64,000 nt of DNA from Candidatus Poribacteria bacterium (lineage in GTDB: Bacteria > Poribacteria > WGA-4E > PCPOR2b), in NCBI GenBank assembly GCA_965218095.1, contig OZ244587.1:4765203-4829202 (forward strand), read 5' to 3'. Positions 42,389-58,974 of this stretch are shown one piece after another. Numbering within the stretch: the first letter of the stretch is position 1; every line of letters starts with the position of its first letter. The notes below the pieces were generated by a model. That model had not been told where the DNA came from and searched no databases. It was given only the letters and a program-made list of their open reading frames with translations. A program made the position numbers and the translations under genes.

Positions 42389-42704
42389 TTTATGTTCCTC
42401 GTTGGTAACCGCTCAGATGATCGGGCAAACTGACAGTTTGTGTTACAAGCATCTGCTAGATTGCGTTTATTTCCGATTCTTCTCCGTTTACCACCTGAAT
42501 GGTTACTCTCGTTGATGAATTCGGGGCTGGGTTAGGTTATCATAGGCAGCATGAATTGTCAAACTGAAAAAGGGATTGCCCACGCATAAAAATTGGATCG
42601 ATTCTATGGGGAATTTCTAGGATCGCAATTTTCTCCTTGATCTTCAGCGCAAGTTAGAATATAATCTCCCTATTGTACCAATATGGCTGTACTATCATTA
42701 GAAA

Positions 42705-43589
42705 ATGGATCATCACGTTTCACGAAAGGAGTTTGCCATGGATCTGACGAAACAACCCCCACGCAGTCCATACTGCACAGCGGTTCTTGGTCTGATGGGT
42801 GCGGCGCGAGCCGCGGATAAAGCGCGCGCCGAGCTCAACAACACGATTGGTGAATATCAATTTGGTCGGGATTCAGGGCTGGACAGACGCACGTTGGAAT
42901 TTCTGGGGCTCTCGCCTGAAGAATTCTTCGATGCAGTTAAAGCCTACCCAGATAATCAATCGTTGAGCGCCGGTCTGAAGGAGAAAACAGGTAAGACCAT
43001 CGAAGAAATTAAAGCGTACAACGAAGCCCAGCGAAATCGCACGCCTCCGGATGAGCAGTCACGTCAACGCTTTGAGCAGCGGAGACAGAATATCGGACGC
43101 CTAGACATCAAGATGATGTCTGACATGCTCGATGCAGAAGATGTGCATGAGTTTGGACCGCCGACAGAGCTCACTGCAGGCCCTCCACGAAGTCCTCACT
43201 CCGGTTCATTGTTGGGGATCGCGTGTTTGGCGCGAATGGCAGACAAAGCGAGGGCGAAACTGGCGGGAACGATCGGTGAGTACAAGTACGGAGAGGATTC
43301 CGGGCTTGATGAAGGCACGTTGGAATTTATCGGATTGACTGCCAATGAATTTCTCGAAGGCGTCCGTCAAAGTCCTGATGACGCTGCACTTGCCAGTTGG
43401 CTGCTTGAGCGTGTCCAGAAGACCGATGCAGAGATCGCGGACTGGAACGCGCAGCGACGTGCGCGAGGCCCATGGAATGACGAGATACAGAAGATATTTG
43501 ATCAACGGGCAAACGCCGCCGGGCGTCCCGATCTCACGACGTTCCTCAATTTGCTCGATTGTGAGGATGCACACGATTTTCCAAGATAA
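42705..43589 (+). CDS. Protein with two tandem DUF5069-like repeats
   Basis: Two homologous halves (…PRSPY…GEYQFGRDSGLD…TLEFLGL… and …PRSPHSG…GEYKYGEDSGLDEGTLEFIGL…). Confidence 0.5.
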   Translation: MDHHVSRKEFAMDLTKQPPRSPYCTAVLGLMGAARAADKARAELNNTIGEYQFGRDSGLDRRTLEFLGLSPEEFFDAVKAYPDNQSLSAGLKEKTGKTIEEIKAYNEAQRNRTPPDEQSRQRFEQRRQNIGRLDIKMMSDMLDAEDVHEFGPPTELTAGPPRSPHSGSLLGIACLARMADKARAKLAGTIGEYKYGEDSGLDEGTLEFIGLTANEFLEGVRQSPDDAALASWLLERVQKTDAEIADWNAQRRARGPWNDEIQKIFDQRANAAGRPDLTTFLNLLDCEDAHDFPR

Positions 43590-43678
43590 ATGTTATAAAT
43601 TCTCAACATCATTCTAGGTTCGATGAAGCGGTGCGTGTCATTGAGACGTGAAAATCAGCGGACGATAGGCACGAAAGC

Positions 43679-44233
43679 ATGAAAAACTACAGCGTCAAAA
43701 TGATCCGCGAACATATAGATAACATCCCCAACATCTCCGTCCCAGAAGGGTTCTCCATCAGAAACTACCGTCCCGGCGAGGGACACATCTGGACACGTAT
43801 CCAGAGAGCCGCCGAGCCGTTTCTTGAGATCGAAGATGACCTGTTTGATCGGGAGTTCGGTCACAATCTGAAAGCGATGGAAGATCGGAGTTTCTTCCTC
43901 GTCGCGGACGAAGGAAAAGAGATCGGGGCAATCACCGCATGGTGGAATCCAGACTGGAAAGACGGGGAATGGGGGCAGATCCACTGGGTCGCAGTACACC
44001 CCGACTATCAGGGGCGTGGACTATCCAAACCGATGATGTCGGTTGCGATGAAACGCCTCAAGCAATTTCATGACCGCTGCTTCCTCGGCACATCAACGAG
44101 ACGGATTGTGGCAATCAAGGTCTATCTGGATTTTGGGTTTTACCCCGACCTCGAATCCGAAAATAGCCGTGAAGCGTGGGTGGAGGTCGCGTCGGTCTTA
44201 GAACACCCGATCTTAAAGGCGTGCGGGTTTTAA
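43679..44233 (+). CDS. GNAT-family N-acetyltransferase
   Basis: Acetyl-CoA-binding motif QIHWVAVHPDYQGRGLSKPMM. Confidence 0.7.
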   Translation: MKNYSVKMIREHIDNIPNISVPEGFSIRNYRPGEGHIWTRIQRAAEPFLEIEDDLFDREFGHNLKAMEDRSFFLVADEGKEIGAITAWWNPDWKDGEWGQIHWVAVHPDYQGRGLSKPMMSVAMKRLKQFHDRCFLGTSTRRIVAIKVYLDFGFYPDLESENSREAWVEVASVLEHPILKACGF

Positions 44234-44331
44234 ATCTGCGATAAATTACGTTTTACGCATCATACATATCACATTTCGTGTATGTATGTCGCATTCATTG
44301 CAAAACAACATCGTTTTAGACAGAGGAAATC

Positions 44332-44700
44332 ATGCAACGCCTTTTCTTCGCACTCGGTTCTAGTTGTGCCTTGTTAGCTGTGATAACAGGCGCATTCGGC
44401 GCGCATGCCCTTAAAACGAAACTCTCATCCGATATGCTGGCAACCTTTGAGATTGCTGTGCGCTATCAGATGTATCATGCGTTGGGATTGATCGCTGTGG
44501 CCTGGGCTTCATCACAATGGAGTAGCCAACTTATCTCCGCGGCCGGCTGGTTATTCGTGGTTGGTATCGTTATCTTTTCAGGGAGTCTCTATATTCTGGC
44601 CTTGAGCGGAATTCGCTGGCTTGGAGCGATGACGCCGCTCGGTGGGCTCGCCTTTATCGTTGGCTGGCTGTGTCTTCTGTGGGCTGTAATACGAAACTGA
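44332..44700 (+). CDS. DUF423-family small membrane protein
   Basis: Four predicted TM helices. 122 aa. Confidence 0.55.
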   Translation: MQRLFFALGSSCALLAVITGAFGAHALKTKLSSDMLATFEIAVRYQMYHALGLIAVAWASSQWSSQLISAAGWLFVVGIVIFSGSLYILALSGIRWLGAMTPLGGLAFIVGWLCLLWAVIRN

Positions 44701-44765
44701 GAACACGAGACAATCTGTATCAACCCGGAGGATCTTGACCTGCGAGGGAATGGGATGGTGTACTA

Positions 44766-44920
44766 TAACGCAAGTTGCTAGTTGATAAAGCAAGCGTCAG
44801 AAACCGAGTTTTTTATAGATAAGGAACACGATTTAGGGAAAAATACAACTGATTTTCCCTAAATCAGACAATCTGAAAGTGAAAAACTCGGTTTCTCTAT
44901 GATACTAGCAACTCAGGTTA
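44766..44920. mobile_element. MITE-like palindromic element, copy B (inverted relative to copy A)
   Basis: Reverse complement identical to 35083-35238. Confidence 0.75.
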
Positions 44921-45112
44921 CTATACTAAACCTTTGAGAAACCGCATTGTAGCTTGGAATTAACGTCGCAAGAGTGTATGAATTCAAGAGTGCATGGGTT
45001 CATTGAACGCTTGAACTCAAATCCCGAGTCCTCGATACGCCAAATGGAATAGATCTTCTTTGAGAGCTATCCACTTAACAAATATAAGTACCTGCCGCCA
45101 AAAACTTGCTTC

Positions 45113-46030
45113 ATGTTCCTACCCATGAATCTATTTCTCCAAATCGCTCACGGTGTCATCGGGGCGGTCATCATATCCCTCTTTTTCAGCCTCAGATCTA
45201 GTTTCGGTGAAGCGCGACATACCCTCAGCATCATCGGAGCCATCGCGATTATTATTGCAAGTGGCTACATCCTGCGGACACGGCTCATCCGGTGGGGAAG
45301 TCGGCAAATCTGGTTGAAATACCATCAAAGGCTCGCATCTTTCGGATTGAGCCTTGTCTTTATCCACTCCGCCTTTCGCCCCTTCTCATGGCATTCGTGG
45401 CTGACATTCGCTCTCGCGCTGCTCAACCTTGGGACAGGCATTGCCGTGAGTCTCACTACACGGCGCACACGACGTGTCCTGCTCCGCTGTCATCTCGCCC
45501 TCGCGCCAATTTTGCTAATTGGCATCGTCGTACACGGCAGGGAAAAATTAGATCACGATGAATTCTTTCCCTTGACAGAAGAACACGATATTCCGTGTGT
45601 AAGGTGTCACACATCAGATCGGCTGCTGTTTACCATCAATTCGCGCTTTCAAAGTGATTTAGACGGTGAGGGCAATGCCTCGGATGACTTACAGTGGGAG
45701 TTTGGCCTTCAGGCGACTTCACTTTCTCAGCATGCAGCGATTTCGACGAAAAAGGGAGATGGCGGTTGGCTGATAACCGATGAGCCGAACCACCAGAAAT
45801 ACATGGTCAGGAAAGTGGCAGATCGGCTGCACGTTTATGCCAATTCTCCATACAAGGGTTACACCTGTCTCACCTGTCATGTTCACAACACCCCTGAGAT
45901 TCAGTTTGCTCATGAGGCTCACGGTGTGACTTCCTATAACGCATGCTTCAACTGCCATCAAACGGTCATTGGTGGAGAAAAATATGGCAGACGAAAAGCG
46001 AACTGGGACTATAATCCAGTTAGGAAATGA
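45113..46030 (+). CDS. Membrane-anchored triheme c-type cytochrome
   Basis: N-terminal 150 aa contains about 4 TM helices. Three CxxCH motifs (CVRCH, CLTCH, CFNCH). Confidence 0.65.
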   Translation: MFLPMNLFLQIAHGVIGAVIISLFFSLRSSFGEARHTLSIIGAIAIIIASGYILRTRLIRWGSRQIWLKYHQRLASFGLSLVFIHSAFRPFSWHSWLTFALALLNLGTGIAVSLTTRRTRRVLLRCHLALAPILLIGIVVHGREKLDHDEFFPLTEEHDIPCVRCHTSDRLLFTINSRFQSDLDGEGNASDDLQWEFGLQATSLSQHAAISTKKGDGGWLITDEPNHQKYMVRKVADRLHVYANSPYKGYTCLTCHVHNTPEIQFAHEAHGVTSYNACFNCHQTVIGGEKYGRRKANWDYNPVRK

Positions 46031-46244
46031 ACAAATCAACAGCAAAAGTAGCTCACGTAGATCGTCCAATCTTGGGTCCTGGAGTGCAAAAGCTCCGTCC
46101 CGCTACGCGGGATCTTGCTTCACTAGAGACTTGTAGCGAAAACAGAGTTTTCGCACGCCGGTTGAAATTTTCCTTGACACCGAAACTTCACTTATGATAC
46201 CCTTTGCGCACTCTCAAACGATAGACAGAAACTTAAAAGGCGCC

Positions 46245-46346
46245 ATGCAAACTCTGAATCGACGACCACAACTTCAAATTGTATCTCATCGTTGGCATTG
46301 GTGGTGGTATGCTGTTCAGGGTGGGAGTGTGCCTTTGCTGAGATAG
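46245..46346 (+). CDS. trpL: trp leader peptide (33 aa) with tandem Trp codons, W-H-W-W-W
   Basis: atg...cgt tgg cat tgg tgg tgg tat...tag, read directly. A terminator lies 30 nt downstream. The trp genes follow. Confidence 0.6.
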   Translation: MQTLNRRPQLQIVSHRWHWWWYAVQGGSVPLLR

Positions 46347-46377
46347 ATTTTTGGATTCATATTTTAGATAAATCAAA

Positions 46378-46425
46378 GCTGTAGGCATACGAACCCCGTT
46401 GTCTACGGCTTTTTTTGTGCCTATT
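46378..46425 (+). terminator. Attenuator terminator hairpin followed by a T-run
   Basis: GCTGTAG-gcatacgaaccccgttgt-CTACGGC then TTTTTTTG, immediately upstream of the hisI RBS. Confidence 0.55.
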
Positions 46426-46446
46426 TTCTGCTAGCGAGGAGGAAAA

Positions 46447-46830
46447 ATGGAAATTCTAAATCAACTCAAACCCGATCAGAATGGTTTAATTCCTGCGATC
46501 ATACAAGACGACGAAAACAACGAAGTCCTCATGGTTGGCTATATGAACCGCGAGGCGGTGCAGCGGACGTTAGAATTGGGGCGTGTCTGCTTCTGGAGCC
46601 GTTCTCGCCAAGAATACTGGATCAAGGGGGAGACTTCAGGACACACGCAAACCGTACGAACTGTCGCCTTTGATTGTGATGGTGATGCGCTGCTGATCAA
46701 AGTTGAACAGAAAGGCGGGGCGTGCCACACCGGCTATCGCTCCTGTTTCTTTCGGGAGGTCTCCCCCGACGGTAACTCTACGCGCATTGTTGGCAAGAAG
46801 GTTTTTGATCCGGATACAGTGTACTCGTAG
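46447..46830 (+). CDS. hisI: Phosphoribosyl-AMP cyclohydrolase
   Basis: LIPAIIQD...YMNREA...[19 protein letters not shown]...DCDGDALL...[10 protein letters not shown]. Confidence 0.8.
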
Positions 46831-46839
46831 GAGACTCCC

Positions 46840-48354
46840 ATGTATTACCCAAGCTTAGAAGATTTTCGAGAAAAAGCGCAACACGGAAACTTGATTCCCG
46901 TTTACAAACCGATTCTGGCGGATATGGAAACGCCTGTGTCCGCATTTTACAAGATTGAAGTGAGTGATTACGCATTTCTGTTGGAGAGCGTCGAAGGCGG
47001 TGAAAACCTTGCTCGATATTCATTCCTTGGCAGCGGTCCGTCGACTTTATTTCGGAGCAGAGGAAATCTGGTCCGGATTGATGACCTGCGTACCGGGCAA
47101 ACCGTCGAACTGGAAAGCGAAGACCCATTGGAAGCACTTGAAAAATTGATGGCTCGCTACCAGCCCGTTGATGTTGAGGGATTGCCACGGTTTCATGGTG
47201 GGGCTGTCGGCTACCTGAACTACGACATGGTGCGTTTCGTTGAGGAACTGCCCGACGATACCGAAGACGATCGAGAACTATCCGATTGCTTTTTCATGGT
47301 CACCGACACGCTCCTGGTGTTTGACCATGTGAACCATCAGATCAAGGTTGTCGCCAACGCCCACATCAACGGCGACGTTGACGACGCTTACGCACAGGCA
47401 ATCGATCAGATTGACGGGCTCATCGCCAAACTCAAACAGCCGTTGTCCTCCCCTTTCCCCGCAAGTGGGGGGGGGGAGAAGGGGGGAGTCAAAAAGCCGG
47501 CTAGACACCCAAGCGATGTGCCTGTCACTTCAAACTTTACGAAGGAAGATTACAAGCAGGTTGTCCTTCGGGCAAAGAAATATATCGCCGCGGGGGACAT
47601 CATTCAGGTCGTGCCATCACAGCGTTTCACCGTGCCGATATCGGTCGATACATTCGAGGCTTATCGTGCTTTACGCACAGTGAACCCATCGCCTTATATG
47701 TACTACCTCAAGTTCGATGAACTCCAGATTGCTGGCGCTTCACCTGAGATGATGGTGCGCGTTGAGGACGGTGTTGCGGAGATGCGCCCAATCGCAGGCA
47801 CCTGTCCACGTGGGAACATGCCCGACGAAGATGCCGCCCTTGCAGAAGAGTTGCTCGCGGATCCGAAGGAGCGGGCCGAACACGTCATGCTCGTTGACCT
47901 CGGGCGAAACGACCTGGGGCGCGTTTGCGAATACCATACTGTTCGCGTGAGTGAGATGATGCTGATCGAACGTTACTCGCATGTGATGCACATTGTTTCG
48001 CACGTTGTCGGAGAATTGCGCGAGGGGAAGACCTCCTTCGATGTGATTCGCGCCTGCTTGCCCGCCGGGACGCTATCCGGCGCCCCAAAGATCCGGGCGA
48101 TGGAAATTATCGACGAACTTGAGCCGACGCGGCGGGGACCTTACGGCGGCGCCGTCGGCTACTTCAGCTTCTCCGGTAGCGCAGATACAGCGATCACGAT
48201 TCGCACGCTCGTCGTCAAAGACGGTGTTGCCTACGTCCAAGCGGGCGGTGGCATCGTCGCAGACTCTGTACCCGAAACGGAATATGAGGAAACGCTCAAC
48301 AAGGCGCGGGCGGTGTTAAAAGCAATTGAATTAGCTGAGACTGGATTGGAGTAG
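46840..48354 (+). CDS. trpE: Anthranilate synthase component I
   Basis: Chorismate-binding core (LVDLGRNDLGRV..., GAVGY...). 504 aa. Confidence 0.9.
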   Translation: MYYPSLEDFREKAQHGNLIPVYKPILADMETPVSAFYKIEVSDYAFLLESVEGGENLARYSFLGSGPSTLFRSRGNLVRIDDLRTGQTVELESEDPLEALEKLMARYQPVDVEGLPRFHGGAVGYLNYDMVRFVEELPDDTEDDRELSDCFFMVTDTLLVFDHVNHQIKVVANAHINGDVDDAYAQAIDQIDGLIAKLKQPLSSPFPASGGGEKGGVKKPARHPSDVPVTSNFTKEDYKQVVLRAKKYIAAGDIIQVVPSQRFTVPISVDTFEAYRALRTVNPSPYMYYLKFDELQIAGASPEMMVRVEDGVAEMRPIAGTCPRGNMPDEDAALAEELLADPKERAEHVMLVDLGRNDLGRVCEYHTVRVSEMMLIERYSHVMHIVSHVVGELREGKTSFDVIRACLPAGTLSGAPKIRAMEIIDELEPTRRGPYGGAVGYFSFSGSADTAITIRTLVVKDGVAYVQAGGGIVADSVPETEYEETLNKARAVLKAIELAETGLE

Positions 48355-48375
48355 ATCGGCGACAGGAGGCAAATC

Positions 48376-49062
48376 ATGAGTGTCACACTCGACCAAGTCA
48401 TTCCTTGGGGAAGAGCCCTCCAAGAGTACACGCGGATGTTCAAGCTCTCCGACGAGGAACTGAACTTACGGATCCTCGGCGTCGGTGATGGGCCTGCCAG
48501 TTTTAATAGCGAGATGAAGGCCCTGGGGCATACGGTTCTATCAATTGATCCGATCTATTCGTTTTCAGGAGCGCAGATCGAACGGAGAATTGAAGAGAGC
48601 TACGATACCGTCATCTCTCAAGTGAAACAGAAGCCTGACAACTTCGTCTGGGATTTTTTTTCAGATCCAGCGCATTGTGGTCGCTTCCGTCTTGAGACCA
48701 TGAGGAAATTTTTAGCGGATTTTGAGATGGGAAAGGTTCAAGATCGTTATCTTCCTGAGTTTCTACCTACACTCAATTTCGCCGATGACCAGTTCGATTT
48801 AGCACTCTGCTCGCATCTGCTCTTTTTATATTCAGTTCAGCTATCTTTCGATTTTCATCGAGATTCTATACAAGAACTCTGTCGCATTTCTCAAGAGGTA
48901 CGGATTTTCCCGCTGCTAGCGTTGAATTGCAAGAAGTCGCCCTACGTTGCACCGATTCAATCACACTTTTCGGCAGCGGGATTTACGGTTGATATTTGTC
49001 GCGTGCCTTATGAATTCCAGAAAGGCGGAAACGAGATAATGAGAATCTACAGAAATGGTTAG
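48376..49062 (+). CDS. Class I SAM-dependent methyltransferase-like protein inserted between trpE and trpG
   Basis: Motif I-like [11 protein letters not shown]. Lower GC than its neighbours. Confidence 0.5.
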
Positions 49063-49073
49063 GAGAAGAACCA

Positions 49074-49637
49074 ATGATACTCATGATTGACAATTACGAC
49101 TCATTCACCTACAATCTCGTGCAATATCTCGGCGAGTTGGGGGCGAATCTTGTCGTCCATCGCAACGACAAAATCACGCTTGACCAGATCGAAGACCTCG
49201 CACCTGAGAAGGTCGTCATATCGCCGGGGCCCTGCACGCCGCGGGAGGCAGGCATCTCCTGTAAGTTGATTCGTCACTTTGCCGGGCGTGTGCCCCTTCT
49301 CGGCGTCTGCTTGGGGCATCAGTGCATCGGCGATGTTTTTGGCGGCGAGGTCGTTCGCGCCGGACGATTGATGCACGGCAAGACTTCGATGATTTACCAC
49401 AATGGACAAGAGCTCTTTGCCAATCTGGAGTATCCCTTTGAGGCAACACGCTATCACTCACTGATTGTCGCAAAGGAGACGCTGCCAGATTGTCTGGAGC
49501 TCACGGCGTGGACAGACCAGGACGAAGTTATGGGGATTCGACACAAAGATTATCCGATCTGGGGAGTGCAGTTTCACCCAGAGTCGATCTTGACTCGCGA
49601 GGGGAAAAAACTGTTGGGGAATTTTTTGAGGAGGTAG
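49074..49637 (+). CDS. trpG: Anthranilate synthase component II / glutamine amidotransferase
   Basis: Class I GATase: GVCLGHQ catalytic Cys, HPES. Confidence 0.9.
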
Positions 49638-49688
49638 GCAATGTCTGAGACGACGCTATCCCTCCGCCAGGTACGGGTGAATGCTCGT

Positions 49689-50261
49689 TCACCCCTCATA
49701 AATGTCCTGAAACTGCTCTAACGCCGCCGCTAGATTCGCGGCAATCAGATCGCCAACATAATCGTCATCCACCGAGGTCGTGCCGTCATTGGCGATGTCA
49801 ATCCCATCGCCCTTGATGTTCCGTGTCGCTTGCGCTGCTATGGCGTCAAGTTTGCTTTCATCACTCGATGTGAACGGTCGGGACACCGCTATCGTCTTTG
49901 TGCCGTCGGTCTCCTCGGTAATCGTGATGCCCACGCCTTGGGCAATCGAATCGCCGCCGCTACTGCTCACCTGCGTCCACGCACTGCCGTCTGCCGATAT
50001 ATAAATCCCACCCGTGTCGCCCGTCCGAAAATAGATCGCCCGACGCCCCGACACCAGTAGGCTCTCCGCAGGGGCGTCATCACCTACCAAGATCAGATCC
50101 TCGCTCGTGAACTTGATCAGGTTGCCATACGTCATCCCCTTCAAGTCCGCAAGCGTGGCATCTCCACTGCTGGGCACCGCCGCCGGCAGCCGCACGTCGT
50201 CCAACTCCGACTCCGCAACCTCCGGCACCGCTGTGGTATCGATGATATTTCGTTCTGGCAT
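49689..50261 (-). CDS. Hypothetical protein (190 aa; Gly/Asp/Thr-rich C-terminal half)
   Basis: Coherent ORF convergent with trpG. No recognisable domain. Confidence 0.4.
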   Translation of the reverse strand: MPERNIIDTTAVPEVAESELDDVRLPAAVPSSGDATLADLKGMTYGNLIKFTSEDLILVGDDAPAESLLVSGRRAIYFRTGDTGGIYISADGSAWTQVSSSGGDSIAQGVGITITEETDGTKTIAVSRPFTSSDESKLDAIAAQATRNIKGDGIDIANDGTTSVDDDYVGDLIAANLAAALEQFQDIYEG

Positions 50262-50280
50262 CGTCTTACATTCCCGTAAC

Positions 50281-50336
50281 TGTGCACAAAAAAAAGGCGC
50301 AAACTCCCGGTATCATGCCTGATACCGGGGCTTTGC
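50281..50336 (-). terminator. Rho-independent terminator, minus-strand sense (nested hairpin followed by a T-run)
   Basis: Minus strand reads GGGCGCAAAGCCCCGGTATCAGGCATGATACCGGGAGTTTGCGCC then TTTTTTTTG. Confidence 0.5.
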
Positions 50337-50492
50337 GCCCTCAAATCCCTGTTATTACGCAGCGCAAACAGTATACCCAAAAGTATAACCGTTTGTCAAT
50401 CTGTTTTATCGTCCTGTTTTATCGTCTAATCACCATTGCCCTCCATATCAAATAGACCCGGTATCCCATTCAGGATCAAGCCCCAAGCGATT

Positions 50493-50882
50493 TCATCTGG
50501 TAAGTCTTAGCAAAGCTATTTCATATTCTAAACCATCTATTTCAGATCCTAAATCATCTATTTCAGATCCTAAACTAGATATTTCAGATTCTAAATCATC
50601 TATCTCAGATCCTAAATCATCTATCTTAGAAATCAGGGACCCGGACCTATATGTTGGCTGGGTACCACCAATTCTTTTATTCAGCTTGTCGATTCTTGAA
50701 TTCAATGTGTCAACACTACTGGTAAGACTTTGGATAGCCCTGCGTAACTGATGATCAGACGCTGGACTATAACTTACGTCGATTGCAAAAACAACAACTA
50801 CAGCGGTTATCAATAACCCAATCCATTTGATCAGTTTTATGCGTCCCATTTTTATCATCTCCTTATCAGACATTTTACTCAA
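50493..50882 (-). CDS. Small membrane-anchored coiled-coil protein with tandem D-D-L-G-S-E-I heptad repeats
   Basis: N-terminal TM helix. The DNA shows 21-bp tandem repeats at 50520-50630 (atctatttcagatcctaaatc...). AT-rich. Confidence 0.5.
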   Translation of the reverse strand: MSKMSDKEMIKMGRIKLIKWIGLLITAVVVVFAIDVSYSPASDHQLRRAIQSLTSSVDTLNSRIDKLNKRIGGTQPTYRSGSLISKIDDLGSEIDDLESEISSLGSEIDDLGSEIDGLEYEIALLRLTR

Positions 50883-51377
50883 TATAATTTACCTGATACT
50901 TATCCAGAAATAAATCAAGGTGTTTTCTTGCTTCCAATTCATTTGTGCCCCTGTATATTGGATATCCTTGGCATTTACCATCAGGAAAGCGCAGAATTCC
51001 ACTGATAATCCAATAACCAGAATCCTATATCAATTTAACAGCCTCTAAATGCTCATCATCCACAAAAGTACTACCTCCCTTAAACTCCCTTAAAACCAGT
51101 AAGAGTTATTTTAGCACACCTCCTTTCAGATTGCCCCGGATCTGATCACGACTGAGATCTAGCGTTTTTTTGTTTGACAAGACTTCGTTGGGTTTGCTAC
51201 AATATGCAATGCATGTGGCTACCCCTAGCTGCCACACCAGGGATAGCCTCAAGCCGAACAACCAAGTTCGTTAGGAGCGCCCCCATTGGTTGAGCGACTT
51301 TGGTATATTATAACGCATTTCTACCCTAAAACAGAAAAAAAATATAGAAATTGCCATAATATCACCGAAATATACCG

Positions 51378-51428
51378 AAAAAAAGGCGGGATCGCTCAAA
51401 TTCTGACGCGATCCCGCCTTTTTTTTGT
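51378..51428. terminator. Bidirectional rho-independent terminator located where the HsdM homology stops
   Basis: AAAAAAA then GGCGGGATCGC-tcaaattctga-GCGATCCCGCC then TTTTTTTTG. Confidence 0.6.
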
Positions 51429-51831
51429 CGCTGTCGTAGATATCCCCTTTCACATCGGTATCCAGACCGCTCCATGTTTCATCATTGATGAGTTGAATGA
51501 TTTGCTTCAGTTTGACGGGATCTTGGATCCTGTTTTGGGATTTTCTGAAGATTACACCTAGCGTACCGCTCTCCAGAGCCAACGTGTCGAGGATATCGCG
51601 GTAGTGTGTTTCAAGGGCAGCGCCCTCCTTGGCGACTAAACCTTCCCAGTCTTTCCCTGCGGGGACAACGGGGTCCTTGTTGTATGGCGGTTTGGTCTGC
51701 TCGTCCGCCATTTTCAGAAATAGGAGATAGGTCAACTGTTCCACATAGTCGCCGTAGCTGATCCCATCATCACGAAGGACGTTACAATAATTCCACAGTT
51801 TTTGCACAATAGCTGATGAATCGTTTGGCAT
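51425..51831 (-). pseudogene. hsdM: Type I RM methyltransferase HsdM: N-terminal domain only (truncated)
   Basis: LWNYCNVLRDDGISYGDYVEQLTYLLFLKMADEQ...TWSGLDTDVKGDIYD is the HsdM N-domain. The catalytic domain (xxFYTP, NPPF) is absent. The ORF runs on through the terminator into AT-rich DNA. Confidence 0.55.
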
Positions 51832-51871
51832 TTTCGGGATGGTTCTCCTGCGGTTGTATGGGAGGGCACGT

Positions 51872-52255
51872 TTATACCGGCGGCATTATTACCAATTGAC
51901 TGGCAAGAGCCAGCTTTCTTGCGATGCGATCGCGCGCGATCTTGTCTGCCGGGAACGGTGTGATATTCGCATGTAGTTCATGAGGGATGATGTCTGGAAT
52001 AACTGTAAGATGATTCTCATAAACGACCTCTGCCAAAAGATCTGCCCTTGCTCTCAGTGTTCTTTCGCCTTGGACGTTTTCCCGCCCAATCACCCACACT
52101 TCGCTCTCAGAGAGGGATGAGATACGAAACACAGACAGATCCTCGCTATATAGAGGTGGCATGAATGCCGCATATTTGACAACCTTTTTTTCTACGGAAA
52201 AATGTCTTTTAGAAAAAATAAAGCGGGTAAGTTTCTCGCCTCCTGAAAAATTCAT
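51872..52255 (-). CDS. Hypothetical protein (127 aa) within the RM island
   Basis: ORF coherent with its neighbours. No known motif. Confidence 0.35.
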   Translation of the reverse strand: MNFSGGEKLTRFIFSKRHFSVEKKVVKYAAFMPPLYSEDLSVFRISSLSESEVWVIGRENVQGERTLRARADLLAEVVYENHLTVIPDIIPHELHANITPFPADKIARDRIARKLALASQLVIMPPV

Positions 52256-52265
52256 ATCATGTCCT

Positions 52266-52688
52266 TTATTGAAAGAGGCGGTTTAACGTTGTAAGAAAAC
52301 CCGGTAGAAGGGCAAAGTCCGACAAGGCACAAATTCCTGCAATCTCCCGCTTATCACTAAAAAAGGCACCGTAGATGACGTGACCGTCACCGTATAGGCT
52401 CATCGTCGCTATGCCATCCCCTGGTCGCCATTCCAACCCAATCCCTCCATCTTCCAACCACATCATCTCAGGCATTGGAATATTACGCTGCATCTGCTCC
52501 AGCAAAGAAAGTGTTTCATTGTACGCCGATTCAGGGACAGGCTCAACTTCGTTATCCAACTCACAGGCTTCCTCAACCTCCTCGCGGATATCCTCTAGCT
52601 CTCGTTGCACCTGTTTCCTAAACAGTGCTTCATCTACAGGAGGCCGAACGAAATCAAGTTTCTTTTTTGGGGTTTCCATAATGTTCAC
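52266..52688 (-). CDS. Hypothetical protein (140 aa) within the RM island
   Basis: ORF with an acidic N-terminal half. No known motif. Confidence 0.35.
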   Translation of the reverse strand: MNIMETPKKKLDFVRPPVDEALFRKQVQRELEDIREEVEEACELDNEVEPVPESAYNETLSLLEQMQRNIPMPEMMWLEDGGIGLEWRPGDGIATMSLYGDGHVIYGAFFSDKREIAGICALSDFALLPGFLTTLNRLFQ

Positions 52689-52950
52689 CTATCCGATTTT
52701 GAGATACGTTTCTTAATGAGGTATCTCCGAAATCTGATTCATCGTTATCCCCTCGTAGCTCTGCCAGCAGTACGTCTCCGATATAATCATCGTGGCGTTC
52801 GCCTACGTCTGTTACCTCACACTCCAGCGTCCCTGCCAACGCCAGGAGGGGATCGGTGCCCTGCGTTTCCTGGGCTGGATCTTCGTTTTCTGGAATATTA
52901 TCTAAGGCGATTTCGGCAGATAAATCTGTCCACTCTCCTCGTGCCCTCAT
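52654..52950 (-). CDS. Hypothetical acidic protein (98 aa) within the RM island
   Basis: The ORF overlaps its downstream neighbour by 35 nt. No known motif. Confidence 0.3.
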   Translation of the reverse strand: MRARGEWTDLSAEIALDNIPENEDPAQETQGTDPLLALAGTLECEVTDVGERHDDYIGDVLLAELRGDNDESDFGDTSLRNVSQNRIGEHYGNPKKET

Positions 52951-53015
52951 ACCTAATATCTCCCAATTAAAATTAAGACTTTAACAAGCAATTGGCAATC
53001 AAATTACACTTAATT

Positions 53016-53804
53016 TTAACCTAAGTTTTCACTAAATACAATCTCTTTCTGTACCTTGATCCGTTCAAGCAAGACACTAGCAGGTTCATCGTTTGGGTCT
53101 TGCGACACCAATTTTCCAGAGAAGGCTTTTTTGAGAATTGACTGACGCAATTGCTCGGCGCGTTTCAGTTCTGCCGTAATAGTTTTTTCCACTTTGTCGG
53201 CAGCAAAGAGATGACGTTCGACTTCTTCAACAAGAATCTGCTGCTCTTTTTCCGGTGGCATAGGGACTGCAAGGAGTCTGAGTTTTGTGCCGTTTACATT
53301 TGCCTGTCCTGCCTGTTGAGACACAACCGATAAAATCCAATCTTTACCATACACGGAGTTAATATAGTACGCTACAATCATCGAATCAATATGTGGATTA
53401 AACCGTACCCTAATAAGATATGAAGCGAACGAACACGGGTTGGGTATTCCTGTATAAACTGCCGTTTTGCCAACTAATTCACGGCTATTTGTGCGATTGA
53501 ATAGCAAATCCCCTTTATTCAGCAACAACTCTGGAAATTCATCGTGTTCTTTCGGGAGATATTTCAGATTATTCAGAACGATTTTACCGTCAACAATATT
53601 CCCCATTCTCAGCACAGGTATATCGTTTGAATCCTCGCTTGTTTTTTTTGATGAGCCGTATTGGATTTTTGTCAAGAGTTGTTCAACAGTTGCCCAAGTC
53701 CATCCCTTTGGTAACTTTGGCAGCTCATTCGTATCAGGTGCAACAGGTTCTTTATACTTCGCCTTCCATTTATCATCTTTGGGTATTTCTCCCTTTGCCT
53801 GCAT
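53016..53804 (-). CDS. hsdS: Type I RM specificity subunit HsdS, C-terminal half (TRD2 + conserved helix)
   Basis: TRD followed by the conserved ...LRQSILKKAFSGKL... In the same frame as the upstream half, separated by a single TAG. Confidence 0.65.
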   Translation of the reverse strand: MQAKGEIPKDDKWKAKYKEPVAPDTNELPKLPKGWTWATVEQLLTKIQYGSSKKTSEDSNDIPVLRMGNIVDGKIVLNNLKYLPKEHDEFPELLLNKGDLLFNRTNSRELVGKTAVYTGIPNPCSFASYLIRVRFNPHIDSMIVAYYINSVYGKDWILSVVSQQAGQANVNGTKLRLLAVPMPPEKEQQILVEEVERHLFAADKVEKTITAELKRAEQLRQSILKKAFSGKLVSQDPNDEPASVLLERIKVQKEIVFSENLG

Positions 53805-53825
53805 CTGCTCAAGCTGCTCTGCCTC

Positions 53826-54512
53826 CTACTTCTCCCGCCGCGCTTTGAGAATACGCTCAAGTAGTACAGAAGCAGGTTCAATCCCGTCCTGATGCTCCGC
53901 CCGCCACGCTTCAGTCAGCTTTCCTTCAAAGGCAGCTTTCAGGACGGATTGGCGATACTGCTTGAGTTGGGATTGTGCCTTGTGGAGTGCGTTAATGCCC
54001 GCATCAAGTTTGGCGAGGAGTTCTTCGATTTTGGTGACGATGCGGTATTGTTCGGGGAGTGGGGGTAGAGGGATTTCAAAGGTTTTGAGTTGGTTCCCCG
54101 TTATCGCATTAAAAGTTGTTCCAGCACCTCTGCCCGCGAGTTCATCTTCATAGGCACGCATCAAATAGAAGATGAAAAACGGCTCAATACCACTTAACCC
54201 ACGGATTGCTGCAAGACCTCTACCTACGCAGGATTTTTCAGGGCATAAGTTCGTTGGACCAACAGGTGCGCGAACAGAAATAAATACGTCCCCTTTTTCA
54301 GCGATTTTTTTCGGTGCGGCACACCACTTTTGTGGCGTTGGGTAGATCTCACCAAATTCAAGTTTACCTTGATAAAAAGGAAGTCCTTTTCCGTCAGTAT
54401 TATAGGTTGATGATGGTGGCGATTGCCCCAATATAATTTTGCTGATTTCCTCTAATCTCGTCCACACCCACCCATCGGGCAGCTCAGACAAACCTACATC
54501 CGTTTCGCTCAT
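53826..54512 (-). CDS. hsdS: Type I RM specificity subunit HsdS, N-terminal half (TRD1 + conserved helix), ending at an in-frame TAG
   Basis: ...LPEQYRIVTKIEELLAKLDAGINALHKAQSQLKQYRQSVLKAAFEGKL... 4-nt overlap with the fic start. Confidence 0.65.
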   Translation of the reverse strand: MSETDVGLSELPDGWVWTRLEEISKIILGQSPPSSTYNTDGKGLPFYQGKLEFGEIYPTPQKWCAAPKKIAEKGDVFISVRAPVGPTNLCPEKSCVGRGLAAIRGLSGIEPFFIFYLMRAYEDELAGRGAGTTFNAITGNQLKTFEIPLPPLPEQYRIVTKIEELLAKLDAGINALHKAQSQLKQYRQSVLKAAFEGKLTEAWRAEHQDGIEPASVLLERILKARREK

Positions 54513-55699
54513 ATCACATGCTTCCTTTGGTTCATTGATTTTGTTCTTTCTGTCATGATTATATTGAGTATTTCATCTGCAACAAACAGACGGTTTCGCC
54601 GCCATCCGGTTATTTCCCTGAGTGTGCCTTTTTCGATAAGATAATCCACTCCCCGCTGAACGGTGGGAAAGGGCATCTCCCAAGCCTTCGATAATTCTGA
54701 AATTGAGATAATAGGACTTGCAAACAGATAGTCAATCAAGCGGTTTACAACCTTCAGCACCCTTCGACCGGCTGCAATTGCTCTGTATCGGTTTTGTAAG
54801 TCAAGCAATTTTTGAACCGTCAAAAGGGCATCTTCTGACTGTTGACGAATCCCGTTTAAGAAAAATGTGAGCCAAGCTTTCCAGTCCCCTTTTTGGCTTA
54901 CATTCAACAGCAATTTATAATATTCATCTCTATGCTTCTCAAAAAAATCGGAAAGATAAAGGAGGGGCTGCGATAACAACTCCTTTTCCAATAACATAAA
55001 CGTAATAAGAAGCCTGCCGATCCTTCCATTGCCATCAAGAAACGGGTGAATCGCCTCAAACTGATAATGAACCAGAGCGCATTGAATCAATGCCGGTTCC
55101 CTTGCGTTGGAATGGATGTATTTTTCCAAGTCTGAAAAACAACCTTTCATCTCTGGGTCCGGCGGAGGAACATAGGTTGCGTCCATCAAAGTACACCCGG
55201 GGCTACCAATCCAGTTTTGGCTCGTCCGCATCAAACCCGGGGTTGCACGTTCACCCCGCACCCCCTTCATTAGAATTCCGTGTATTTCACAGGTCAGCCG
55301 AGAACTTATCGGCAACTCTCGCAACCGTTTGATTCCATGTTCCATGGCTCTAACATAGTTGAAGATCTCTTTTACATCGGATGCAGGGGACGGCTCCGTT
55401 TCATCTGCTTCAAAGAGAAAGAGATCATCTAAACCGGATTGGGTGTTTTCAATTCTCGAACTCATTACGGCTTCACGCCGAATAAAAGGGCCAATCAACA
55501 GATGCGGATTAGGAAGCAGTTGCCCTGCACCGGATAACTCTCCAAGTTTGCTGTCTGCTTTTGATAAAAGATTAGCTAACTCCCAATCCACTTCGATTTT
55601 TGATGGGAGTGGATTCGGCACATAAGCCGAATATGGGGGACGGCTTATCGTGCGAATACATTTACCAGCGGTTGAATTTTTGAAATCTTCCGGATTCAT
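54509..55699 (-). CDS. fic: Fic-family protein (AMPylation motif) with a C-terminal winged-HTH
   Basis: HPFLDGNGRIGR Fic motif. C-terminal wHTH-like region. Confidence 0.85.
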   Translation of the reverse strand: MNPEDFKNSTAGKCIRTISRPPYSAYVPNPLPSKIEVDWELANLLSKADSKLGELSGAGQLLPNPHLLIGPFIRREAVMSSRIENTQSGLDDLFLFEADETEPSPASDVKEIFNYVRAMEHGIKRLRELPISSRLTCEIHGILMKGVRGERATPGLMRTSQNWIGSPGCTLMDATYVPPPDPEMKGCFSDLEKYIHSNAREPALIQCALVHYQFEAIHPFLDGNGRIGRLLITFMLLEKELLSQPLLYLSDFFEKHRDEYYKLLLNVSQKGDWKAWLTFFLNGIRQQSEDALLTVQKLLDLQNRYRAIAAGRRVLKVVNRLIDYLFASPIISISELSKAWEMPFPTVQRGVDYLIEKGTLREITGWRRNRLFVADEILNIIMTERTKSMNQRKHVI

Positions 55700-55722
55700 T
55701 TTTTATCACTTTACGTTAATAA

Positions 55723-55890
55723 GATACAGTATTATTAACGTTTTTATGGGTTTGTGTTAATAAGGTTTAGCGTTATTAATGTTTTTTGCGAATTCGTGTT
55801 AATAAGATCTAGTGTCATTAACATTCTTGTGAATCAACGTTAATAAAATGTAGTATTATTAACGTTTTTTCGAGTTACTGTTAAAGCGTT
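55723..55890. promoter_or_regulatory. Four tandem 41-bp units, each with the palindrome GTTAATAA-N9-TTATTAAC; operator-like array upstream of fic
   Basis: Units read directly: acGTTAATAAgatacagtaTTATTAAC, gtGTTAATAAggtttagcgTTATTAAt, gtGTTAATAAgatctagtgTCATTAAC, GTTAATAAaatgtagtaTTATTAAC. Confidence 0.6.
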
Positions 55891-55929
55891 TGATAACAGC
55901 AGGGATTTTATCCAATTGAGGCATCTACC

Positions 55930-58830
55930 TCACGCCGCCAACTGCTCATTCAACGCCTCAAGAATTGTATCCAACGCATCCCCAAACAACTGATACACCT
56001 TAATCGCCCCGCCCTTTGCCTGAAACGGTATGTTCTCAAAATCATCCATTTCAATGCGTAGCGATGTGGCGATATGGTCTTTTATCATCTCCAACCACGC
56101 TATCTGTTCTTGTGAAAATTCCTTCTCCTGATTGGTGAGCCATTCTTGGAACTGTTGATCGACGGTCTCTTTGTAAGGCTCAAGCGTTGCAGTATCCCCA
56201 ATTGCAAAGCGGACTAACGAAATGATGTCGGTCAATAGCTTGTGCGGGCCCGCTCCCTTGACTTTCGATTGGTCTAACCGCTCGTACGCCTGCCATAGCT
56301 CCTCTTTCGTGAAGCGATATGGCGGCTGTTCGATCGCTTGGGCGAGTTGCTGAACTTGTTGATATGTGAGATGCCGCTGCCCGTACGGTTTGCTGTAGAT
56401 AATCTGGATCGCTGTCAGTTCATCCTTGTTCTCTTCGATAAACTGCTTGAAACTTGCCACGCGCTGCTCCGCCCGCGCCTTTGCCTCACGGTCAAATCCC
56501 GAAGAGATGACGCTATCTTGGCTCACGGTGTCTATCGTCTGTTCCTGCTGCCTTTTGAGGTCAATGAGTGTGTTGCGTACGTCTGGGTTATCAAAGGGCT
56601 TACACGCCTCTGTGATAAGCCAATTCGTTTTCACCCGAATTTGCTCCGGCGTTAGGGATTCCGCCGGTGATTCGAGCAATAGCCGAATGTGCTCCGGCAC
56701 TAAGCCTTCAGTAGGTGATTCAGTCAATGCGATGGGTTGTTGATTATTGTCCGGATCCATCGCATCAAACAGGGCGTGGATCATACGCTGCAAGGAGATA
56801 CCCCCTGACACTTCGGCGATTTGTTTCCGGGCATCTTCTCCAATTTCACGGTCAAGACGTGCGAGCCTACCCGCCAACGAGGTCAAGGTATCGGTTTCTC
56901 GGTTGCCGAGCACCACAGACTCAAGCAACTTATCAAACGGCACACTCTGTTTTCGCTCAAGTGGTCGGGAATCGGTTTTGTCATTCTCACAAACGCCCAC
57001 TGCATCGACAATCACGAAATGGGTTTTGTGATGGGTGTCGGGAGTGACCGCGTGCAAATCTGTTGATGAAATCGTGCGCGTACCTCTGCCCTTCATCTGC
57101 TCAAAATAGACCTGCGATCTGATGTTTCGCATGAAGATGATACACTCTAACGGCTTGATATCCGTGCCTGTGGCGACCATGTCCACCGTTATGACGATGC
57201 GCGGATTGTATGAAATGCGGAAGCTAGTGAGCAGGTTTGCCGGTGTATCGCCCGTTGTGCGGTATGTAATCTTTTTACAGAAGTCGTTACCTTTCCCGAA
57301 CTCCTGACGGACGATATGTAGTATATCTTCAGCGTGGGAATCGTCTTTGGCAAAGATCAGTGTTTTCGGGACATGCTTTCTGCCGGGAAAAATCTCTGTG
57401 AACAGATTATCTCGGAAGGTTTGAATCACCTTGCGGATCTGGTCGTCTGCTACCACATCACGGTCAAGTTGATTCGCGCTGTACTCCATCTCCTCATCCA
57501 ACAGTTCCCATCGGATTTTGCGGGTAAGCTTGTCCCGTTTGTCAACGTAAAAGCCGGGAGGAATCTTGCTGCCTTCCTCCGTAATCTCTGTCTTGATACG
57601 ATACACCTCATACCCCACATTCACGCCATCGGCGACCGCTCGCTCGTGGGGATACTCTGTGACCAAGTTCTGATTGAAGAATCCGAGCGTCTGCTTTGAG
57701 GGTGTGGCAGTGAGACCAACGATAAAGGCGTCAAAATATTCCAGTACGGGCTTCCATCGGTAGTAAATCGAGCGATGGCACTCGTCGGTGATGATAAAGT
57801 CAAAGGTCGAAATCGGAATCTTGGGATTGTATACCACCTCCGCAGCGGGTTGATTCGTCGAATCAAGGTTGAGCAGCGATTCACTCTCGCCCTGTTCATC
57901 AAAAACCGATTCTCCCTTTAGCATCGAATACAACCGCTGAATCGTGGTGATACAGACCTTGCTCACCTTGTCAATCCGGTTGGTGGTGAGATGTTGCACG
58001 TTGTAAAGTTCGGTGAATTTCCTGCCATCGTCCGGTGTGGTATATTGCTGAAATTCTTTGTGCGTCTGTCTTCCGAGATTGCTGCGATCAACGAGAAAAA
58101 GTATCCTTTTGGCATTTGCAAACTTGATTAGCCGATAGGCGAAATTCACGGCGGTGTATGTTTTCCCGCTGCCGGTTGCCATCTGAATCAGCGCGCGAGG
58201 GTAATCTTTGGCAAATGACTCCTCTAGATTGGTGATTGCTTCAATTTGACAGTCTCGCAAACCCTGCTTATCCAGTACAGGTGGTGTCTGGAGGTTGTAT
58301 CGTAATGTAAGCGGCTGCTGAATCCACTGTAACAGGGTTTCCGGTTTGTGGAAGGCGAAAACGGGTCGGGAGCGGGAGTCCGGATCGCGTAGATCGCGGA
58401 AGAAGGTTTCAACCCCCGTGCTCTCATAACCAAAAGGTAAAGGTTTTCGATAGCATCGAAGGGTTACTGGAATCCCGGTGAGATACTTCTCAGTTTGTTC
58501 AGAGACCCCGCTGAGGGTTGTGCCCTCCGGTTTGGCTTCGATTACCCCGACCGCTCTTCTGTTGATAAATAGCAGGTAGTCTGTGGGCCCGGCGGACATA
58601 GGAAATTCACGTACCGCGACACCCAGCGATTCACTAGGATTCATCTGTTCATGATCTTGAATCGCCCAGCCCGCTGTGGTGAGCAGTTGGTCGATGTTCT
58701 GTCGTGCTTTTTCCTCGGGTTTCATATCTTCTTTATCTGTGGTGAGGTGAGATTGTCGTGCAAACGTCAGCGTTATTTTACCTGAATCTACTGCTGATGT
58801 CAAATGTCGCGTCCGTCCACTCGCATCCAA
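55930..58830 (-). CDS. hsdR: Type I restriction endonuclease subunit HsdR
   Basis: Helicase motifs (MATGSGKTYTA, DECHRS). HsdR N-terminal nuclease region. About 930-966 aa. The true start may be the internal Met near 58725. Confidence 0.85.
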   Translation of the reverse strand: MDASGRTRHLTSAVDSGKITLTFARQSHLTTDKEDMKPEEKARQNIDQLLTTAGWAIQDHEQMNPSESLGVAVREFPMSAGPTDYLLFINRRAVGVIEAKPEGTTLSGVSEQTEKYLTGIPVTLRCYRKPLPFGYESTGVETFFRDLRDPDSRSRPVFAFHKPETLLQWIQQPLTLRYNLQTPPVLDKQGLRDCQIEAITNLEESFAKDYPRALIQMATGSGKTYTAVNFAYRLIKFANAKRILFLVDRSNLGRQTHKEFQQYTTPDDGRKFTELYNVQHLTTNRIDKVSKVCITTIQRLYSMLKGESVFDEQGESESLLNLDSTNQPAAEVVYNPKIPISTFDFIITDECHRSIYYRWKPVLEYFDAFIVGLTATPSKQTLGFFNQNLVTEYPHERAVADGVNVGYEVYRIKTEITEEGSKIPPGFYVDKRDKLTRKIRWELLDEEMEYSANQLDRDVVADDQIRKVIQTFRDNLFTEIFPGRKHVPKTLIFAKDDSHAEDILHIVRQEFGKGNDFCKKITYRTTGDTPANLLTSFRISYNPRIVITVDMVATGTDIKPLECIIFMRNIRSQVYFEQMKGRGTRTISSTDLHAVTPDTHHKTHFVIVDAVGVCENDKTDSRPLERKQSVPFDKLLESVVLGNRETDTLTSLAGRLARLDREIGEDARKQIAEVSGGISLQRMIHALFDAMDPDNNQQPIALTESPTEGLVPEHIRLLLESPAESLTPEQIRVKTNWLITEACKPFDNPDVRNTLIDLKRQQEQTIDTVSQDSVISSGFDREAKARAEQRVASFKQFIEENKDELTAIQIIYSKPYGQRHLTYQQVQQLAQAIEQPPYRFTKEELWQAYERLDQSKVKGAGPHKLLTDIISLVRFAIGDTATLEPYKETVDQQFQEWLTNQEKEFSQEQIAWLEMIKDHIATSLRIEMDDFENIPFQAKGGAIKVYQLFGDALDTILEALNEQLAA

Positions 58831-58974
58831 TGGTAAGGATGATTCCGCAAAAATAGCTTGCCTAAGTCAACTCATTGGGCTATAATATTTTGATAAGGCA
58901 GGGAAGTCCAACCGGTAGTTCCGCAGTTAAGTTCAGTGGATCCCCGTCTTGTCAAGTTATAACTTTATACTTTA

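Follow-up and report, generated by a model that had tools for sequence, protein, structure and literature searches.

The locus described here is very probably a chromosomal type I restriction-modification island, inherited in a Candidatus Poribacteria clade and inactivated by replacement of the hsdM core and by a stop codon in hsdS. The sequence analysed, called the window below, is a 64,000-nt stretch of contig OZ244587.1 of a Candidatus Poribacteria genome (GCA_965218095.1, positions 4,765,203-4,829,202 of the forward strand), and coordinates given without a locus name are window coordinates. Based on the open reading frame (ORF) map and on Pfam and PADLOC searches, the gene order on the minus strand is hsdR, four palindromes, fic, hsdS with an in-frame TAG, orf98, orf140/orf127 and codons 1-133 of hsdM. 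The restriction system is genetically dead at this locus. The lesions themselves can be read directly, and the loss of methylation and restriction is what established type I enzymology predicts from them: without HsdM no M2S1 core forms, so the locus can neither methylate nor restrict.

The island was compared with its orthologues in six Candidatus Poribacteria chromosomes (L001, L002, L003, L004, L005 and L015), with a conspecific metagenome contig from a 7x-coverage assembly (L038), with an independent 4.2-kb contig from the same sample as L038 (L051; sample ERZ25067264), with another Poribacteria genome (L039, ERZ25070786 ctg150462c), and with L050 (ERZ25072076 ctg245914), a phage-like stretch from a further metagenomic genome. 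The ORF map of the minus strand contained a 966-aa ORF (58830..55930), a 396-aa ORF (55699..54509), a pair of ORFs in one frame (54512..53826 and 53804..53016), three small ORFs (52950..52654, 52688..52266 and 52255..51872) and a 186-aa ORF (51831..51271). An initial annotation, made from the sequence alone, had recognised a decaying island at 51378-58830. Its decay is supported by the hsdM core replacement and by the change of TGG to TAG in hsdS, but its limits have moved: the feature reaches 49689, where the 3' remnant of hsdM ends, and 58830 is the start of a TTG-extended ORF, the conserved hsdR ATG lying at 58725.

Lesions in hsdM and hsdS

The 5' remnant of hsdM (51434..51831, minus strand) consists of codons 1-133, encodes the HsdM_N domain only, and is 87% identical to residues 1-133 of an intact 485-aa orthologue; with this orthologue as query, tblastn placed the same residues at 51831..51433, and in PADLOC the remnant matched only positions 3-133 of a 487-position methyltransferase profile. 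DNA homology to the intact hsdM of all orthologues stops at 51434 and resumes at 49745. There, adjoining trpG, the last 18 codons and the stop of hsdM are found (49689..49745, minus strand), and the surviving 54 nt (49745..49692), 1.7 kb past the upstream break, show 89-92% DNA identity to the hsdM ends of L001, L002, L005 and L015 and are identical to L038. The initial annotation was thus right that the 5' part holds the N-terminal domain only, but the gene is not cut off after it, since its interior has been replaced and its end survives. A full hsdM directly beyond the region first read was looked for, and only these 18 codons are there. The tblastn search with the intact orthologue gave no other convincing hsdM or N6_Mtase-encoding sequence in the window, in line with the original claim that neither methylation nor restriction is left; an HsdM with an N6-adenine methyltransferase domain is missing, codons 1-133 and the last 18 being all that remains.

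The conspecific contig L038 keeps the core of hsdM. Its TrpG is identical to that of the window, the DNA is 99.35% identical over window positions 39074-49746, and then follows the 995-bp hsdM core that the window lacks. The hsdM of L038 is full-length save for two frameshifts, both in homopolymers. The dN (nonsynonymous divergence) of the hsdM remnant is raised, and that of the L038 gene, which kept its core, is raised too; the elevation is therefore not specific to pseudogenisation.

In place of the 995 bp (codons 134-467, the whole N6_Mtase domain), the window carries a foreign insert of 1,688 bp (49746..51433). The insert is collinear from end to end with L050 in three blocks (51436-51165, 50485-50413 and 50407-49742) at 74-89% identity, with both hairpins described below included. 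L050 contains genes of unknown function, one solid match to a phage-type MT-A70 methylase, and weak matches to tail-fibre and portal proteins. Our confidence in calling this donor-like region, and with it the insert, phage-like is no more than moderate, since searches of IMG/VR, cultured phages and JGI metagenomes were all negative. Microhomology of 3-5 nt is seen at the junctions, and the insert has neither a transposase nor terminal inverted repeats nor a duplicated target site, which argues for illegitimate recombination rather than transposition. An insertion sequence or transposon that had jumped into hsdM was ruled out on the same absences and on the loss of 995 bp of target.

At the upstream edge of the insert lies a bidirectional intrinsic terminator (51378..51425; -33.9 and -36.2 kcal/mol, z -6.0 and -7.2), flanked by U-tracts on both sides, with a GC content of 36-42% just beyond. 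The initial annotation had correctly seen this hairpin and the AT-rich DNA beside it but took it to mark the end of hsdM; judged by its homologue at L050 7137-7182, it arrived with the foreign DNA. Where the insert is AT-rich it carries cc129 (50493..50882, minus strand), predicted to be a small membrane-anchored coiled-coil protein with 21-nt repeats in its gene, for which an exhaustive HMMER search gave only coiled-coil and low-complexity matches. A second hairpin terminator (50296..50339; -37.4 kcal/mol, z -6.5), also present in L050, separates cc129 from orf190 (49689..50261, minus strand). The latter is chimeric: 172 codons of foreign origin run on in frame into the final 18 of hsdM. Among 5.8 billion proteins searched, its sole homologue was P0242 (82% identity), which is encoded in L050 just upstream of the weak tail-fibre match. 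No relative of orf190 was found in IMG/VR, cultured phages or JGI metagenomes, the neighbouring tail-fibre-like protein of L050 had no match in cultured phages, and a 21-mer across the insert junction was absent from JGI metagenomes.

The second lesion lies in hsdS (53016..54512, minus strand), a full-length specificity gene with two target recognition domains (TRDs) that is collinear with orthologues of 495-510 aa. As first annotated, it is one frame split by a single in-frame TAG (53826..53828, minus strand), so both TRDs and the conserved regions are present while the frame is broken. Its two halves match positions 9-251 and 261-518 of one 591-position specificity profile in PADLOC. The TAG falls in the central conserved linker. 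L038 has TGG there, and the other 62 of 63 nt around the codon are identical to the window; in L002, L005 and L015, which share the conserved long linker, the column is also Trp. By this comparison the hsdS lesion is a single G-to-A nonsense mutation of a Trp codon. The visible part of hsdS in L051 is open, but this is another allele, which differs in its second recognition domain and has the short form of the linker, and it provides no test of the TAG.

The HsdS orthologues have two linker forms, a long one with about 40 more residues in the window, L002, L005 and L015, and a short one in L001, L003, L004 and L051. The difference maps to window 53780-53900, and it would alter the spacer length of the recognition sequence.

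The inherited island in related genomes

The restriction subunit gene hsdR (55930..58725, minus strand) is intact, as the initial annotation had proposed. It encodes 931 aa from an ATG that matches the start in relatives, and the product belongs to the EcoEI_R_C-bearing family, with HSDR_N, ResIII, DEAD, Helicase_C and EcoEI_R_C domains in Pfam and a PADLOC REase_I match at E 8e-51. An N-terminal nuclease (D..EAK) and superfamily 2 (SF2) helicase/translocase motifs (Walker A GSGKT and DECH) can be read in the translation. HsdR is 82-86% identical to the six Poribacteria orthologues and collinear with them over residues 1-931 without any indel. The pairwise ratio of nonsynonymous to synonymous divergence (dN/dS) was 0.13-0.19 for the window against relatives and 0.12-0.17 among relatives. 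These overlapping ranges give no clear sign of relaxed constraint, in a test that has little power, as a short spell of relaxation is undetectable at a dS of about 0.4-0.6.

Upstream of hsdR a TTGACA-17-TAAAAT site (58775..58803, minus strand) has 11 of 12 consensus matches and lies inside the stretch that still aligns with orthologous loci (homology reaches 58809-58832); as a promoter of hsdR it is putative only. Synteny with L001-L005 and L015 ends about 100 bp upstream of hsdR, from window 58832 upward, which makes this edge of the island a rearrangement breakpoint. Beyond it the window encodes a class I S-adenosylmethionine-dependent methyltransferase, a 334-aa ORF and a 406-aa ORF, and the relatives have a 388-aa gene that is not in the window.

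A scan for HsdR relatives in one genome per species gave 37 loci. The order hsdR-hsdS-hsdM was found by tblastn, with the hsdS and hsdM fragments of the window as queries, in every locus where both genes could be located (more than 20 of the 37), among them loci from Poribacteria, Methanothrix, Acidobacteriota, Chloroflexota, Verrucomicrobiota and other bacteria and archaea. This constancy means that the order is native to this HsdR family, and an origin by inversion or shuffling was ruled out on the same evidence. The island adjoins trpG(-trpE) in six Poribacteria chromosomes, as in the window, and lies beside trpG also in L038 and L039. The comparative genomics proposed at the outset thus finds the island next to trpG in a further eight Poribacteria genomes or contigs, in differing states.

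These states are diverse. L002, L005 and L015 carry hsdR-fic-hsdS-hsdM with an intact 485-aa HsdM, and L001 is without fic. The hsdM gene of L003 has a 1-bp deletion that is not in a homopolymer, and that of L004 a 2-bp deletion within a G-run. L039 (747-7891) has decayed in the opposite way, with hsdM intact but with only the last 141 residues of hsdR, the last 37 of fic and a half-size hsdS. The gaps between the subunit genes are filled variably. Slot 1, between hsdR and hsdS, holds SoFic, an MNT nucleotidyltransferase, Schlafen/AlbA_2 with HATPase_c_4, AAA_15/AAA_21 ATPases, or a PIN-like toxin-antitoxin (TA) pair (DUF433/DUF5615), which bears out the early remark that fic sits at a place where type I loci often have anticodon-nuclease or abortive-infection genes. 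Slot 2, between hsdS and hsdM, holds an antitoxin-like/PIN pair, Thoeris-like ThsB-TIR with ThsA-Macro, a C5 methylase with a GHKL ATPase, a CBS/HEPN/DUF4268 protein, or an IS200 transposase. The Thoeris-like pair is that of L015 (15809-17254), in which a ThsB-TIR gene is followed by a ThsA-Macro-domain gene. The island behaves as a recombination hotspot in which cargo and subunits have been gained, swapped and lost independently across lineages.

Age of the replacement and alternative readings

L051 aligns without a break across the upstream insert junction. As this contig is independent of the window, the replacement event is real. Both the replaced allele (L051) and an hsdM allele that keeps its core (L038) occur in one metagenome sample. 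The identity between the window and L051 is mosaic: 100% in orf140, 99.2% in orf127, 99.8% in the upstream part of the insert and 98.5% in orf190, as compared to 88.7% in the hsdM remnant, 90.6% in orf98 and 87.6% at the 3' end of hsdS. This mosaic again marks the island as a recombination hotspot and leaves the age of the event uncertain.

The history that we propose starts from an inherited native state of hsdR, slot 1, hsdS, slot 2 and hsdM beside trpG-trpE. Microhomology-mediated illegitimate recombination swapped the catalytic core of hsdM for about 1.7 kb of phage-like DNA, which brought the terminators, the small coiled-coil gene and part of the gene that adjoins the tail-fibre-like gene in the donor-like region. 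A G-to-A change turned the conserved Trp codon of the hsdS linker into TAG. In slot 2 the orf140/orf127 cassette would have taken the place of a PIN toxin gene whose antitoxin partner, orf98, was left behind as an orphan. Fic, the orf140/orf127 cassette and the palindrome operator presumably still work, independently of the restriction complex. HsdR without the M2S1 core cannot engage DNA, and its loss would therefore not be selected, so that the intact hsdR would most simply reflect a young inactivation.

Several points weigh against this account. The replaced allele is common to two strains whose adjacent segments are as much as 11% divergent, and the event may therefore be not very recent, or it may have spread by recombination; if it is not very recent, the intact hsdR needs another explanation. 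The hsdM search covered the 64 kb window, and a compatible second hsdM may lie elsewhere in the 6.35-Mb chromosome. The TAG of hsdS rests on one assembly. The label phage-like is a weak one, as L050 has a single solid methylase match, tail-fibre and portal matches at E values of 1e-7 to 1e-4, and no counterpart in IMG/VR or among cultured phages.

The intact hsdR could also be explained if another type I system elsewhere in the genome provided HsdM, and perhaps HsdS, in trans, so that this locus would give only HsdR. Bacteria often carry several type I systems, the hsdR gene is full-length with all its motifs behind a promoter-like site, and its dN/dS lies near that among genomes with intact systems. 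But subunits are known to be exchanged only within one type I family, and no same-family paralogue is in evidence, nor is any hsdM-like sequence anywhere in the window. The cognate hsdS is broken as well, and relatives lose their subunits independently (L039 keeps hsdM and loses hsdR), contrary to a retained division of labour; we give trans supply very little credence. Repurposing, which the initial annotation had offered beside recent decay, would mean that selection keeps the hsdM-less allele, either because HsdR, Fic and the slot-2 cassette defend the cell together without restriction or because the allele is a 'restriction-off' variant at the level of the population. The same junction is found in the second, diverged strain L051, in which the visible hsdS is open, the core-keeping L038 comes from the same sample, and the hsdR and fic ratios resemble purifying selection. 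However, the identity mosaic (orf140 100%, insert 99.8%, hsdM remnant 88.7%) fits a segment spread by recombination equally with long persistence, the selection test has little power at the observed divergence, and elsewhere in the clade fic and hsdR are missing or degraded. We know of no mechanism by which HsdR acts without the M2S core, and consider repurposing improbable.

The two remaining explanations concern the lesions themselves. The hsdM junctions might be products of chimeric assembly of long reads, and the TAG a consensus error, given that the source and its relatives are metagenome-assembled genomes, that related contigs have homopolymer frameshifts, and that the TAG occurs in one assembly only. 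Such an artefact is barely plausible, as the upstream junction is reproduced in the independent L051, the downstream flank is 99.35% identical to L038 up to the junction, the insert is a coherent block collinear with L050, and the TAG is a substitution and no homopolymer indel. The two hsdS ORFs might also be a designed pair of half-size specificity genes; half-size HsdS proteins can form active dimers, each half has one TRD, a conserved helix and an '...EPASVLLERI...' tail, and an ATG lies 8 codons past the stop. This has a nearly negligible chance of being correct, because a single base separates the stop from the TGG of the conspecific contig, which matches the window at the other 62 of the 63 nt, every long-linker orthologue is one uninterrupted protein of 495-510 aa, and the halves map to consecutive parts of one profile.

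Inactivation of an inherited type I island by core replacement and an hsdS stop is thus the reading that we prefer. A wider and rather unlikely reading would see more than decay in the hsdM-null allele and treat it as a restriction-off variant that arose by capture of phage DNA and persists beside hsdM-bearing alleles in one Poribacteria population, with selection on the autonomous cargo, with orf140/orf127 founding a Poribacteria-rich abortive-infection family of toxin/immunity cassettes of ADP-ribosyltransferase (ART) fold, and with the palindromes as a shared cargo operator.

Cargo genes and comparison with known systems

The fic gene (54509..55699, minus strand) encodes an apparently intact SoFic-type class II Fic AMPylase of 396 aa. 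It is embedded between hsdR and hsdS, as initially annotated, with Fic_N (E 9e-29) and Fic (E 1e-17) domains in Pfam. The PADLOC SoFic profile matched at E 1.3e-121 over positions 5-358 of 361, and the score against the NCBIfam SoFic equivalog was 202.5 bits with a cut-off of 550. Residues 23-383 align with solved SoFic structures (E 7.5e-46), and the catalytic HPFLDGNGRIGR and the inhibitory SSRIEN aligned with the same motifs in them, so that both HxFx(D/E)GNGRxxR and the (S/T)xxxE(G/N) of the inhibitory Fic_N helix are present. Orthologues that are 82-84% identical occupy the same slot in five relatives. The pairwise dN/dS of fic was 0.17-0.30 for the window against relatives and 0.14-0.23 among relatives, with the same low power as for hsdR. 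The end of fic and the beginning of hsdS share 4 nt, and for this reason there is no small gene downstream of fic. Millman et al. reported SoFic as a single-gene anti-phage defence (bioRxiv 10.1101/2022.05.11.491447), and the E. coli SoFic has been described as a toxic AMPylase whose antidote is encoded downstream (PMC12249575). The Fic of the window is presumed to be an autonomous single-gene abortive-infection AMPylase.

A palindrome array (55715..55863) with four 25-bp copies of GTTAATAA-N9-TTATTAAC, spaced by 41-42 bp, ends 16 nt before the fic ATG. Four matches to this palindrome were observed and 0.02 are expected by chance. All six Poribacteria orthologues of the island, the fic-less L001 among them, have one to three copies between hsdR and the next gene, with arrays at L001 13045-13162, L002 12860-12965, L004 12860-12957, L005 12864-12939 and L015 12825-12901. 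The array probably forms the operator of the internal promoter. The RptR regulator and TAGCTA motif of embedded type I islands in E. coli were considered and rejected, as the motif differs and no such gene is present.

The three small ORFs of slot 2, left without identity in the initial annotation, are present and gave no match in Pfam, NCBIfam or PHROG. In L001 and L015 a small protein encoded ahead of a PIN-domain gene aligns with residues 1-71 of orf98 (52654..52950, minus strand). The DNA remains homologous as far as about 52718, some 17 bp into the expected start of the PIN gene, and 27 new codons follow, giving the protein a new C-terminal extension of 27 aa. The antitoxin-then-PIN-toxin arrangement of VapBC-type pairs is lacking, as the PIN gene is replaced by orf140/orf127, and orf98 looks like an orphan antitoxin-like gene.

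The upstream gene of the cassette, orf140 (52266..52679, minus strand; 137 aa from its ATG), is a candidate immunity or antitoxin gene, and the downstream one, orf127 (51872..52255, minus strand), a candidate ART-fold toxin gene. Homologous clusters numbered at least 297 for orf140 and at least 142 for orf127, nearly all without Pfam domains, and no relative of orf127 was found in IMG/VR. In L039-L049 and L051 the two genes are separated by 10-13 nt. Some of these pairs belong to restriction loci, as in L039, where the pair fills the same island slot, and others lie elsewhere, next to IS605-type genes or in Latescibacteria; the two genes form a conserved adjacent unit that moves together. The AlphaFold models of both proteins are confident, with a pLDDT (predicted local distance difference test) of 94 for orf140 and 88 for orf127. 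Foldseek gave no significant match of orf127 against the PDB, and the best geometric match was Tpt1. Residues R11, S41, R70, D72, H95, N97 and R108 of orf127 are invariant or nearly so; the NAD-binding signature of an ART would be of the R-S-E, H-Y-E or Tpt1 R-H-R-R type. An ART-fold toxin with its immunity protein is the leading but unproven reading of orf127/orf140, held at slightly better than even odds.

In L046-L049 (Latescibacteria and others) and at L039 4696-5514, a 272-aa protein without family match precedes a pair of the orf140/orf127 type, which suggests a three-gene version of the cassette in some genomes. The orf140 homologue of L039 is split by an insertion of about 890 bp with a 272-aa ORF.

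The window also holds a complete type I-D CRISPR-Cas (clustered regularly interspaced short palindromic repeats) locus at 8237-23940, with cas3', cas10d/csc3, csc2, csc1, cas6, a cas4-cas1 fusion and cas2, and an array of 63 copies of the 37-nt repeat CGATCAATGATAAGAATCTCGATTACGAGATTGAAAC. The 60 spacers of the array gave only exact chance matches of 12-16 nt against the insert, L050 and every locus compared; the one longer match, of 22 nt in L001, has two mismatches. A 78-bp tandem repeat (18195-18542; 4.5 copies, 98% identity) lies between cas4-cas1 and cas2 and overlaps the last codons of cas1.

This kind of system is well known, the locus is a case of ordinary defence-island turnover, and the understanding of restriction-modification or of Fic defence is unchanged by it. 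Its value lies in a base-pair-resolved view of the turnover of a type I restriction island in an uncultured phylum. One inherited island can be compared across nine genomes or contigs, in which every subunit and cargo slot has been gained, swapped or lost independently, and one inactivation event can be followed back to the capture of phage-like DNA by way of microhomology. Two leads emerge as well, an abundant small gene pair without family that may be a new ART-type toxin/immunity module, and a conserved operator-like palindromic array within the operon.

As compared to known systems, the island is closest to the EcoAI/EcoEI-like type I enzymes (classical family IB). Its HsdR has HSDR_N, the SF2 helicase and EcoEI_R_C, its HsdS has two recognition domains with conserved helices, and the HsdM orthologues have HsdM_N and N6_Mtase. 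Classical type I gene orders are R-M-S or M-S-R, unlike the hsdR-hsdS-hsdM order of the window, where moreover the methylase core is missing and hsdS is stopped; the HsdR of the window scored 191 bits against the NCBIfam EcoAI equivalog, whose cut-off is 550. The Fic protein resembles SoFic in its collinearity with SoFic structures over the full length, in its HPFxDGNGRxxR active site and in its N-terminal inhibitory S-x-x-x-E-N. Unlike the E. coli SoFic protein (PMC12249575), it has no small AS1-like gene downstream. It differs further in that its gene lies within a type I operon, translationally coupled to hsdS, after an array of four palindromes.

A precedent for a defence gene embedded in a type I operon is PrrC in EcoprrI. 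The ART toxin-antitoxin pair DarTG2 is likewise embedded in an E. coli type I system, lying between hsdS and hsdR in enteropathogenic E. coli (PMC12255303). Like these loci, the window has a toxin/antidote-type module between restriction subunit genes, and if the fold call holds, orf127 would share the ADP-ribosyltransferase superfamily with DarT. In contrast to DarTG2, orf127 and orf140 have no sequence similarity to DarT or DarG, the partner has no macrodomain, the window has neither an RptR regulator nor TAGCTA sites, and the host restriction system is dead. The best fold match of orf127 is Tpt1/KptA and not the TreTu, RES or MbcT toxins, and orf127 has no Rhs delivery domain as TreTu has. 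Unlike the Rhs-type TreTu-TriTu, RES-Xre and MbcT-MbcA pairs, the orf140/orf127 cassette would have its inhibitor gene first, as in a classical type II TA pair.

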